Source: Zootoca vivipara (lineage: Eukaryota). Taken from it: a stretch of DNA of 64,000 nt. Position 1 is the first letter of the stretch, and every line of letters starts with the position of its first letter. The notes under the pieces were generated by a model. The model was not told the origin of the DNA and searched no databases. It saw nothing but the letters and a program-made list of their open reading frames with translations. Shown here piece after piece: positions 15,776 through 20,854 of this stretch. The stretch spans positions 41,044,001-41,108,000 of the forward strand of contig NC_083288.1 in assembly GCF_963506605.1 (NCBI RefSeq), written 5' to 3'. Made by a program: the position numbers and the translations under genes.

Positions 15776-16350
15776 TCACACCCGTAACCAATGCTCTATC
15801 CCCTTAATTATGTCAGCTAACCAGATGTCGTTCCCTTGAGGGGAAAGGTGAACTCCGTCGTTACGATACAGGGCTGCTTCAGTGCGTACTAGTTCTGGGT
15901 GGGAAATTATCTGACCATTCAAACTTAGGACCCTGCGCAATACAAATGAATTCAAAAGCCTCCTGGTTCTGTTCAAGGCCTTCGGGCAGAGCCCCTCACG
16001 CCAAACGCGCCTCTGCAACAAGGCGGACCATAGCAACGACATCCCCGGGAAAGAAGCCAGCAGCTTTTCAAAGTCCTCAAAGATAGTCCATTTCAATTTC
16101 ACTGCGTTCTGATACGCCAAATCATTCTCCCCCAGCTGTATGACCAGCGCATGGGGGGGCCCGACTGAAGCAGCCCTTTCCAAGACAGCAGGCAAAAGTT
16201 CTTTCCAGCGCATACCGCGCCTGGCAATCCACGATACTTTCACATTTTTTGGCAGGCCGAGATCACCCCCAAGGCCGGTTTCCATTGCCCTTACTTTAGC
16301 CCAGTGCACAATGCTGTGACCCGCAATCCACACATTGATGCGGCGCACAC
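15776..16350 (-). CDS. Ngaro SGNH/GDSL hydrolase ORF without its own ATG
   Basis: Block I AGHS, block III LGENDL, block V DGVH; begins directly after a pyrimidine tract and CAG. Confidence 0.88.
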
Positions 16351-16416
16351 CTGAAAAGGAACAGTGACAAACAGGGGATCAGTTGATGGGTGACTGGGGA
16401 TCAGTATGATTTGCAA

Positions 16417-17358: not shown

Positions 17359-19287
17359 TGCTGCGCCTCCGGTGCCAGCAAGCGGAAGCGGTCCATCTGG
17401 AAACGAGACAACGCATCGGCGATATCGTTATTGACCCCCGGGACAAATTTGGCCGTGAAATGCAAGTTCAGCTCCAGGCTGCGCAGCACGAATGCCCGCA
17501 GAAGGGCAGAAACCCTCGTGGAACGGGATGATTGTCTGGACATCACGCTGACCACCGCTTGATTATCAGTCCGGAAGCAGACTCTGCGGTTCCTGAATTC
17601 CTCGGCCCACAAGTGCACCGCCACCACAATTGGGAAAAACTCCAAGAAGGTTAAATCCCGTGTGACCTCCGAGGCATGCCAGCTGGCGGGCCAAGGCTGA
17701 GCGCACCACCTGCCCTTGAAGTAGACACCGAAACCCAAGGACCCGGCTGCATCTGATTGTACTTGGAAATCTGAACGCAGGCTCAGATTGTCCTGCCAAA
17801 GGGATACACCGTTGAAGTGATCCAAAAAGGTTAGCCAATTCTCTAGGTCGGCTTTTACTCCCTTGGGTAAACGGGCCCTGTGGTATGGGCGCTTCAGACC
17901 TACGGTAAGTCTAGCCAGGCGGCGGCAGAAGGGGCGTCCTGGCGAAACTACCCTGCATGCAAAATTGAGATGTCCAAGCAAGGATTGAATCTGTTTAAGC
18001 GTTACTTTTTTAAGGGGAATCAGTTGTAAGATTAATTCCTTAAGAGCGGCCAGTTTATCCAAAGGTAAGCGTGATGCTTGGGCCACGGTGTCCAGTTCTA
18101 TACCCAGGTAAGTTAGGCGAACTACTGGCCCTTCAGTTTTTCCAGCTGCAAGTGGCACCCCAAGCTCTCGAGTAAGGGAGGCGAATTCTTTCATGAGCCT
18201 CTCACACTCCCCATTATTAGCCCTTCCCACGAAAAGAAAATCATCGAGATAATGCGTAACACCTGCCAGGCCTGTTTTAAAGCGGAGTGCCCAGTCCAGG
18301 AATGTGCTGAAGGCCTCGAAAGCTGAACATGCGACAGAGCAACCCATCGGCATGGCTTTGTCAATGAAAAACGCACCCTCGAACTTGAAACCTAACCACT
18401 TGAAGTCATGAGGGTGAACCGGGAGGAGCCGGAATGCTGATTCAATATCGCATTTGGCTAGCAGAGCTCCTTTACCGAATTGTCTAACCAGCTTAACAGC
18501 CTGGTCGAAGGATGCGTATTTCACTGTGCAAAGGTCCTGTGGGATGCCGTCATTGACTGATTTGCCGGGTGGGAAAGATAGGTTGTGTATAAGCCTGTAT
18601 TCGCCTGGGGTCTTTTTTGGTACCATGCCTAGGGGGGGAAATGTGGAGGTCTGGTATGGGAGGTGTCATAAATGGGCCCGCCACCCTGCCTGCAGCTATT
18701 TCTTTATTAATTTTCTTGATTGCTATATCTGGCCTATCGCGGACGGACTTTTGGTTAGGTGGGTCACCAGTTAACGGTGGGGTATTAACTGGAATTTTGA
18801 AACCCTGCGAGAAGCCGTCCCAAATGAAGGAGGAGGCGGTGGGATTAGGATAGCTGTTTAACAGGATGCGCAGTGAGGAAAGTTTTATGGGGGTGAATGC
18901 CAGGGACAGGGACTTATTAGTATCTACTCTGGCTAGGGGTAGGTCCCTGAGCGGCACCTTGGGAATTCCTGGGGCCCTGGCCTGAGCTCCCCCCTCTACC
19001 TCCACGAAAGGGCTGCTTCCCTTTGTAGCAGGAGACTGCAGGATGCTGGGCGAGACATTTGTCGCACTCATGTGCGTACTTACAATTGGGCCTCTGACAG
19101 AGGCCCTTGTTGTACTCCCAGCAAACCCTGCGACGCGGGTCCTTCCTGGGTTCAAACCTGGTTGACCTTTGCGGCTCCGCCTGCTTCTTTTCGACGAAGG
19201 GCACCACGTGGTTACTCCAGTAGTGCTGATTCCTTTGATCCCAGCGCGTCCTTGAGTTCTGAGAGGCGTTTCTACGGAAATCCTCAT
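17304..19287 (-). CDS. Ngaro reverse transcriptase / RNase H, split by a +1 frameshift at 18632-18638
   Basis: KEIAAGRVAGPF upstream; YRLIHNLS, KCDIESAF, MPMGCS, YLDDF, RNase H SDAAG...LEFFP...TDNQ...ADALSR. Removing one G restores ISPLGMVPKK. Confidence 0.93.
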
Positions 19288-20854
19288 CGTAGTTAAGAGC
19301 CGCCGCCTCCCCCGCCATCGAGTAGGCCAGCCTCACGTCCGCTATGTAGGCCAACAAATGCATTGCCCTCTTGGGGTATGCTGCCGCAATTACTGCAAGC
19401 CAAATGTGTATACCGTTCTGCCAATTCTCAAAAGTGCGTTCTGCACGCGGGGCTCTATACCTACGCTTTCCGAATTGCTTCCTTTTCTCCCCCTTCCCTA
19501 ACATTTGGGACAGGGGCAGCAGCGTGAAAATATCGATGTAATCACCGTTCAGAATCTTCTCGCGCTTCCGATTAGACAGATGGGACCCCAAAATTATGTC
19601 AATATCGGAATTGGTGGAGGATTTAGCCTCTGGCACCAGCGCACCACCCCGGCATTCCAGGGTGCCGTTAAAACCCTTGCGATGTGAACTAGAGCGCCTC
19701 CTGTGTACCCAAAAAGGAAGGCCCATCTGGTCTTCAGCCACCCCCCAATAATCCTCCATGGGAATGTCCGCATCCGAATCGGACGACGTACCTGAACCCT
19801 CATCCGAGTCGTCCTTCCTGCTGCGCTTCCTCTTCTCCGACTTCTTCTTTGCTTTACCTCCGGTCTGGCCTGTCTCAACGCCCGCCGTCTCGCTGGGGGG
19901 TTCGGCCATGGAACCCGCTGGCAGCTGGGGAGGCCCGGCCTGGGCCTGAGAGGAATGGGATCTCAAGATATCTGAAACAGACTGAGCAGACATGAGGGGC
20001 GAAACTGGTGCGCGAGCCTGACTGTGAGTGGGCTCGAATGCGCCCTGGGGGGCGTTCGAGGAGGCCGTTAGAGGGGCCTGAGCCAAGGTCTGGACCTGCT
20101 GCGCGGCCTGCAAGAAAGAAGCCGATGCGCCCTGCTGTGCGCCCAAATCCTGTTGTAAACCACGGAGTGAGGCGACCAGGGGGGGGTTACTGGCGAGCCT
20201 AGCGGCCTGAAGAAGGCTATGGGAAGCTGGTTGGGAAGCTACTGCCATGGCCTGACTCTGTTGAAACGGCGCCGCCTGAATAAGGCTATGGGTAGCTAGT
20301 TGGGAAGCTTGCGCCACGGCCTGAGACTGTTGCAGGGTCTGGAGGGACACAGCAGATGTGCCCGGCTGAGCACTCATGTCCCGCTGAATGATGTTATGGG
20401 AAGCTGGTTGGGAAGCTTGCGCCATGGCCTGACTCTGTTGAAGGATCTGGAGGGAAGCAGCTGATGTGCCCGGCTGAGCATCCATGTCCCGCTGGGAGCC
20501 AGAGGGCGAGACAGCCGATGCACCTGACCCTCCCCCCTCACTAGACTGGGAGCTGAGAAATGAGAAGGCAGAGCTAGTTAACTGACTATTGCCAAGGGGG
20601 GATTCAGGAACACAGGATTGGGAATTACCAACTCCATTTTGTACCCCCCCGTTCGCAGATGCAAGCGAAACACATAAAGGAGCAAGCGTGGAGCACAGTG
20701 GTCCTAACTGATTACAAATGTTCTGTAAGTTGGAAGCCACCTGGGCCAGTGCCTCTGGGCTAAAGGAGGGAGGGCCTGATGAGGCATTGCCAGCTTTCGC
20801 CGCTGGGGCAGCTCCCTTAGAGGATTTGCTGCGTGTACTGCGACCCGAGGACAT
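18917..20854 (-). CDS. Ngaro gag-like ORF1
   Basis: ATG at 20854; Q/A/S-rich internal repeats; C-terminal CWEYNKGLCQRPNCKYAHECDKCLAQHPAVSC zinc fingers and an RGG tail. Confidence 0.88.
   Translation of the reverse strand: MSSGRSTRSKSSKGAAPAAKAGNASSGPPSFSPEALAQVASNLQNICNQLGPLCSTLAPLCVSLASANGGVQNGVGNSQSCVPESPLGNSQLTSSAFSFLSSQSSEGGGSGASAVSPSGSQRDMDAQPGTSAASLQILQQSQAMAQASQPASHNIIQRDMSAQPGTSAVSLQTLQQSQAVAQASQLATHSLIQAAPFQQSQAMAVASQPASHSLLQAARLASNPPLVASLRGLQQDLGAQQGASASFLQAAQQVQTLAQAPLTASSNAPQGAFEPTHSQARAPVSPLMSAQSVSDILRSHSSQAQAGPPQLPAGSMAEPPSETAGVETGQTGGKAKKKSEKRKRSRKDDSDEGSGTSSDSDADIPMEDYWGVAEDQMGLPFWVHRRRSSSHRKGFNGTLECRGGALVPEAKSSTNSDIDIILGSHLSNRKREKILNGDYIDIFTLLPLSQMLGKGEKRKQFGKRRYRAPRAERTFENWQNGIHIWLAVIAAAYPKRAMHLLAYIADVRLAYSMAGEAAALNYDEDFRRNASQNSRTRWDQRNQHYWSNHVVPFVEKKQAEPQRSTRFEPRKDPRRRVCWEYNKGLCQRPNCKYAHECDKCLAQHPAVSCYKGKQPFRGGRGGSSGQGPRNSQGAAQGPTPSQSRY

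Follow-up and report, generated by a model that had tools for sequence, protein, structure and literature searches.

A spliced Gag-SGNH esterase messenger predicted from conserved splice sites in a lizard Ngaro retrotransposon

Hydrolase-bearing Ngaro elements are known from Xenopus (DIRS-53_XT and DIRS-54_XT; 10.1101/2021.08.05.455354), where they carry an SGNH open reading frame (ORF) without proven function. The available text of that paper gives their order as A1...B1 A2 B2 repeats (A ~235 bp) with gag, reverse transcriptase/RNase H (RT/RNase H), tyrosine recombinase (YR) and then the SGNH ORF, which it regards as an overlapping ORF in its own right; the strings 'splic' and 'intron' each have 0 occurrences in that text. 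A review excerpted in PMC13003380 proposes that the YR is reached by frameshifting, and does not propose splicing. SGNH esterases are also found in ORF1p of ZfL2-1-type long interspersed nuclear elements (LINEs), which, in the accessible parts of PMC3905857 (PDB 4C1B), consist of a multimerising N-part, an arginine-rich motif and the SGNH domain, with no folded RNA-binding domain. We analysed a stretch of 64,000 nucleotides (nt) of Zootoca vivipara (NC_083288.1, positions 41,044,001 to 41,108,000; hereafter the window), which carries a Ngaro element laid out like those of Xenopus. The question addressed is how the overlapping, start-less ORFs of YR retrotransposons are expressed. We conclude, at a probability of roughly 85%, that the SGNH esterase of this element is made from a spliced messenger joining a donor inside gag (last exonic base 19792) to an acceptor at 16350.

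The predicted product, the N-terminal half of Gag (GagN) fused to SGNH, has the layout given in the available description of the ZfL2-1 class, with the Gag finger dropped. In that class, however, a single contiguous ORF of a non-LTR (long terminal repeat) element encodes the protein, whereas the present protein would be assembled by splicing and belongs to a YR element whose repeats are split; the comparison is of how the proteins would work. The literature on Ngaro/DIRS, SGNH and YR retrotransposons that we searched held no report of a Gag-SGNH splice, nor did the accessible parts of PMC9341512, PMC7192593 and PMC6681497. The presence of an SGNH ORF in Ngaro is thus already known, while the splice was not found in print.

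Retroviral env is expressed from a spliced subgenomic RNA beside the unspliced genome RNA, usually from its own start. Ty1/Copia elements reportedly also make spliced subgenomic RNAs, and Copia splicing yields Gag alone. The element described here would resemble both in having an unspliced genome RNA and a spliced messenger for one product, but would differ in that the Gag N-half is fused to an enzyme encoded downstream, or possibly to two of them.

Splice sites and the predicted fusion protein

The features that define the fusion are as follows (window coordinates).

22702-14560, minus strand: Ngaro element, 8.1 kb; A1...B1 A2 B2 repeats with gag, RT/RNase H, tyrosine recombinase and a fourth ORF
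18917..20854, minus strand: gag ORF, 645 amino acids (aa); low-complexity N-half, conserved C-half with a Cys/His finger
19792..20854, minus strand: GagN, first coding exon predicted to be common to the products; 354 aa + 1 nt, rich in S/A/Q
19814..19849, minus strand: basic patch KKKSEKRKRSRK, immediately upstream of the gag donor
19786..19794, minus strand: phase-1 splice donor CAG/GTACGT, inside gag
16351..19791, minus strand: predicted GT-AG intron, 3441 nt, containing the gag C-half, RT/RNase H and YR
16351..16382, minus strand: SGNH acceptor; branch-point-like CTGAT, pyrimidine tract, AG
15776..16350, minus strand: SGNH hydrolase exon, 190 aa after the junction Gly; S 16315, G 16216, N 16126, D 15859, H 15850

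The sequence-only reading of this DNA had proposed that an SGNH ORF without an ATG begins right after a phase-1 acceptor, and that a TCAG/GTACGT donor in gag would join to it in frame, skipping the zinc fingers, RT and YR. All of this held. The gag ATG lies at 20854, and the 1063 nt from there to 19792 make 354 codons + 1, so the donor (GAGGGTTCAG/GTACGT, minus strand) is in phase 1. The acceptor (...TTGTCACTGTTCCTTTTCAG/, first exonic base 16350) is followed by 575 nt to the stop at 15776, also in phase 1. The 19792/16350 join therefore predicts a protein of 354 + 1 + 190 = 545 aa, which includes the basic patch starting at 19849; the patch may serve in RNA binding or as a nuclear localization signal.

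All GT and AG sites of the element were ranked with a simple splice-site weight matrix. With this matrix the gag donor was rank 1 of 426 GT sites and the SGNH acceptor rank 3 of 530 AG sites. The pair shows the features of U2-type splicing, namely GT, branch point, pyrimidine tract and AG, in frame and conserved.

Conservation, selection and the missing start codon

The SGNH region of the window has at least 666 candidate matches in the 1.44-Gb lizard genome. As a close set we used the window and 39 copies, of which 31 have the donor region and 37 the acceptor region. The donor reads CAG/GTAC(G or A)T in 32/32 loci and the acceptor YAG in 38/38 (window included in both), with CTGAY at -40 to -18 of the acceptor in all 38. 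The pyrimidine tract varies among copies by one-base length changes, which rules out a coding role for the sequence upstream of the acceptor. The first exon is open in 17 of the 30 loci where both ATG and donor could be mapped, the other 13 being frameshifted. Across families (47 loci, SGNH identity 44-100%), the offset and phase of the best AG within -150 to +40 are unchanged in 43; the exceptions are L058, L063, L076 and L077. In a 20-element alignment, built on segments that begin at the projected donor, the SGNH acceptor (20/20) and the gag donor (19/20) were the most conserved sites of their kind. Both sites, whose conservation across copies had been put forward as a check, are thus kept in position and phase.

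Silent sites were also evaluated in gag segments from near and medium loci, 14 after dereplication, with three loci dropped for stops. Only 2 of 49 fourfold columns were invariant, and these are donor positions -2 and +2. Donor +5 is G in 21/22 representatives, in a codon of the rare NCG type (NCG codons make up 13-18% elsewhere). In loci L041-L079 we took whichever AG/GT lay nearest as the donor, so that in the distant ones +5 alone is a free test.

It could be argued that the donor is conserved for the protein or as a different RNA signal, with the phases agreeing by chance. A Ser-Gly-Thr/Ser motif at this point is indeed conserved as protein, and a chance phase match is expected 1 time in 3. 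The invariant bases, however, are silent third positions that fit the donor consensus, and in copy L008 the breakpoint falls exactly at GT. We give this explanation hardly any weight. In L008, an internally deleted copy, A1 abuts the GT of the predicted intron with no microhomology. Its breakpoint falls at +1 of the intron, and that of L020, likewise internally deleted, at about +10 (L008 and L020, oriented 4210 and 4215). These two of the eight donor-less copies could be explained by the copying of RNA cut at the donor.

The SGNH frame gave ratios of nonsynonymous to synonymous substitution (dN/dS) against the window of 0.09-0.18 in 11 of 12 pairs, the remaining pair being saturated; the GagN first exon gave 0.19-0.28 in 7 pairs. 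Judged by dN/dS, the SGNH frame is translated and under purifying selection. In the window this frame has no ATG from the preceding stop up to the catalytic GHS, and only 4/38 close copies have an in-frame ATG. Between the YR stop and the acceptor lie 25-69 nt, and each of the three frames occurs among the loci, an argument against readthrough or frameshifting. A selected frame with no conserved start and with YR spacing in every frame needs an imported start.

Translation of the esterase from unspliced RNA, by readthrough, by a frameshift from YR or by non-AUG re-initiation, appears very improbable to us. In its favor, Poulter and Butler (2015, quoted in PMC13003380) proposed frameshifting for YR in Ngaro, RNA that crosses the acceptor without splicing was seen, and the window has an in-frame GTG. 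That GTG, however, is present in just 1/38 copies, in-frame stops are frequent directly upstream, the variable spacing speaks against it as stated above, and the conserved branch point and pyrimidine tract would be left unexplained.

By sequence the SGNH domain could not be identified: Pfam gave just DUF459 at E 0.077, and phmmer against the PDB gave nothing. It was identified by structure. The model (mean predicted local distance difference test, pLDDT, 95.3) has an alpha/beta SGNH fold, and its PDB matches include TesA, GDSL esterases and 4C1B, the esterase of ZfL2-1; the match to 4C1B (E 1.2e-7) is no closer than that to bacterial TesA. Block I Ser, II Gly, III Asn and V DxxH correspond to S12, G45, N75, D164 and H167, which are invariant in 19 aligned sequences. 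With its catalytic residues intact, the hydrolase is predicted to be an active esterase.

Gene models, RNA reads and the choice of donor

Fourteen of 18 longer homologues were read. Ten are lacertid RefSeq models with a gag-like N-part, a basic patch and SGNH, two are YR-SGNH and two are host fusions. P0011 and P0017 map to genome G000 as phase-1 GT-AG joins that use the gag donor and skip the gag C-half, RT and YR. At four loci a 461-aa fusion form and a Gag form are listed as isoforms, with cluster members assigned from their names and lengths. Transcript alignments generally underlie RefSeq isoforms. On this reading, a class of lizard RefSeq genes labelled 'uncharacterized' consists of transposon products. 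Splicing as the route of expression, which the sequence-only reading had inferred, is supported by the conserved sites and phase, by selection, by the absence of a conserved start and by these junctions in sister families.

Raw reads of X6 and X7 were sampled at ~6% of each run (two surveys), X8 in one survey, together with contigs of X9 and X13. In one X13 contig the donor of a host exon (L080) is joined to the homologous SGNH acceptor of L073, 13 kb away. The left ten letters of the contig's junction are the end of the host exon before GT, and the right twenty follow the AG of L073. The junction is the same as in RefSeq P0007; five letters alone discriminate, and X13 was taken as an RNA run by guess. 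The contig shows the homologous class of acceptor in use, in phase 1.

This contig bears on a further possibility, that the SGNH acceptor is real but pairs with a different donor, located in the leader, in YR or in a host exon. The esterase would then be free or fused to YR, and the gag donor would serve only YR or nothing. The one junction in the RNA data starts from a host donor, RefSeq YR-SGNH models exist, and the gag-less copies L016 and L019 are expressed. On the other hand, YR holds no conserved donor (best 9/20), leader donors shift position and a leader join supplies no ATG, and the mapped RefSeq fusions take the gag donor. We regard this possibility as unlikely.

Several observations weigh against the splice from gag to SGNH. 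No gag-to-SGNH junction was found in X6, X7 or X8 reads or in X9 and X13 contigs (depth ~1-5), and X13 contigs and X7 reads cross the SGNH acceptor unspliced. The X6 SGNH reads match the gag-less L016/L019 at 28/28 variants, so the depth in that run lends no support to a fusion. A search for spliced DNA copies gave 0 matches for two junction patterns and 7 for a looser one, none of them Ngaro, and no spliced copy was present among 92 scored matches. The window's own family has no fusion model in RefSeq (53% identity at best), the YR-SGNH models P0003, P0004, P0030 and P0032 are present there as rivals, and all these RefSeq models are predictions. In distant families the donor is weak (CAG/GTTCGT) and not the top-ranked site, and AG/GT is missing in 3/59 loci, all three distant. 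The counts are not independent because the copies are related, and the invariance of -2 and +2 is partly circular for the distant loci, given how the donor was chosen there. Finally, a basic patch stood upstream of SGNH in just 3/86 distant homologues (140 proteins surveyed, 54 set aside as short or without the motif), and we rejected it as a general feature outside lacertids.

Sense-strand transcription was richest over SGNH and B1, a pattern that 3' bias explains equally. An early hint that X6 depth stops at the donor was dropped, as on L007 depth continues on both sides. L016 and L019, the main source of expressed SGNH in X6, form a non-autonomous subfamily with A1, an unrelated middle (carrying a LINE insertion in L016), the RNase H end, YR and an intact SGNH. 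L077 and L078 belong to a distant family without the usual donor and have a strong phase-1 donor 164 nt upstream, possibly reflecting donor turnover.

The L080-L082, L073 and L067 loci (G000 C9, 2.42-2.55 Mb) contain a tandemly duplicated host gene ending in Ngaro SGNH exons, which RefSeq names zinc finger protein 638-like and SRRM2-like. Among its models (P0007-P0009, P0018) two use two different intact SGNH copies, a possible exaptation. Long unnamed proteins with 1-6 Ngaro-type SGNH domains were also seen (P0063-P0067, P0070, P0072, P0145, P0150, P0158, P0185, P0187, P0198 and P0202). Several have a conserved upstream motif in common, which suggests domesticated host families with such domains.

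The recombinase, the reverse transcriptase and the remainder of the window

The other features of the element are as follows.

22469..22702, minus strand: A1 split direct repeat, 99% identical to A2; TATA-like TTTAAA at 22536
22385..22410, minus strand: leader 3' splice-site-like sequence, first exonic base 22385; top AG of 530
19004..19012, minus strand: candidate +1 ribosomal frameshift site CCC TTT CGT, at the gag 3' end, into the RT frame
17304..19011, minus strand: RT/RNase H, frameshifted near 18640 in the window copy
17396..17420, minus strand: second conserved acceptor TTGTCTCGTTTCCAG/AT, phase 1 in the YR frame
16417..17396, minus strand: tyrosine recombinase frame (PF00589), predicted alternative second exon
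15347..15744, minus strand: B1 repeat; AATAAA at 15434
15120..15353, minus strand: A2 repeat, split direct repeat
14560..14956, minus strand: B2 repeat, 3' end of the element

From its repeat layout and gene order the element is a Ngaro YR retrotransposon. It has the split repeats A1...B1 A2 B2 with gag, RT/RNase H and YR in order (PF00078, PF00589), the SGNH ORF follows YR as in Ngaro, and a Pfam scan of its five ORFs gave no methylase. The gag, YR and SGNH frames are open, and the copy is not autonomous because its RT is frameshifted near 18640. This frameshift, like the probable second use of the gag donor described below, goes beyond the sequence-only reading. The TATA-like motif in A1 may act in a promoter.

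We observed that the acceptor at 17396 was the second most conserved (18/20 representatives; CAG in 31/32 distinct contexts). The YR frame opens only a few codons upstream of it, and most distant families have Leu or Val in place of the YR Met (17331). A gecko model, P0033, joins a basic patch to the YR acceptor point and is the sole support of its kind; the P0036 N-terminus, used as a query, retrieved no GagN-YR isoform from RefSeq. We rate this acceptor lower than that of SGNH, since the RNase H motif DALSRFQM confounds its conservation. The gag donor at 19792 probably also joins to it, and splicing is thus an alternative to the published frameshift proposal for YR.

For RT, the codons CCC, TTT and CGN at the gag end were invariant in 18/18 distinct contexts from 48 loci, against gag-wide backgrounds of ~26%, ~53% and ~50%. 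RT lies in the +1 frame exactly at this point and has no conserved ATG. The invariance may owe something to the Pro-Phe that is conserved in the RT frame. Amalgaviruses have a UUU_CGN +1 frameshift motif at the overlap of ORF1 and the polymerase (PMC5052127, in its available parts), which resembles the candidate site at the gag/RT overlap in motif and frame. In the literature searched there was no report of such a frameshift in YR retrotransposons. Going by these codons, we somewhat favor a +1 frameshift at CCC-UUU-CGN as the way in which RT is reached.

If these readings are combined, unspliced RNA would give Gag, Gag-RT and the genome, and splicing would give GagN-SGNH and probably also GagN-YR. 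The basic Gag N-half common to the products may address the enzymes to the Gag/RNA particle or the nucleus. At the particle the esterase could have lipids or membranes as its target, by analogy with the proposal made for ZfL2-1 ORF1p in the available text of PMC3905857. The product is thus defined as a likely GagN-esterase, with the layout of the LINE ORF1p esterases reached by a different route. More tentatively, and with rather less confidence than in the separate parts, we suggest that vertebrate Ngaro elements make four proteins from one Gag start (YR and esterase by way of the donor, RT via the UUU_CGN +1 frameshift), that every enzyme is particle-bound through the same Gag N-terminal tag, and that the portable esterase exon has also been captured by host genes.

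A second strong acceptor in the leader had also been noted earlier. It is indeed rank 1 of the 530 AG sites, but its first exonic base is 22385 and not 22386. A leader acceptor site scoring at least 11 was found 256-374 nt from the A1 start in 17/28 copies, despite the divergence of the leader. In the window it lies ~120 nt past the likely start site, with no donor upstream within the element and no RNA cover.

A high-copy repeat flanks the element at 22709-22900. Elsewhere in the window, two ORFs in mutually opposite orientation (25947-26447 and 35310-35858) are presumably RNase A-like, by motif. A Copia-like integrase-RT ORF of 1167 aa occupies 27840-31479, and a 95-nt perfect inverted repeat at 27416-27934 adjoins it.

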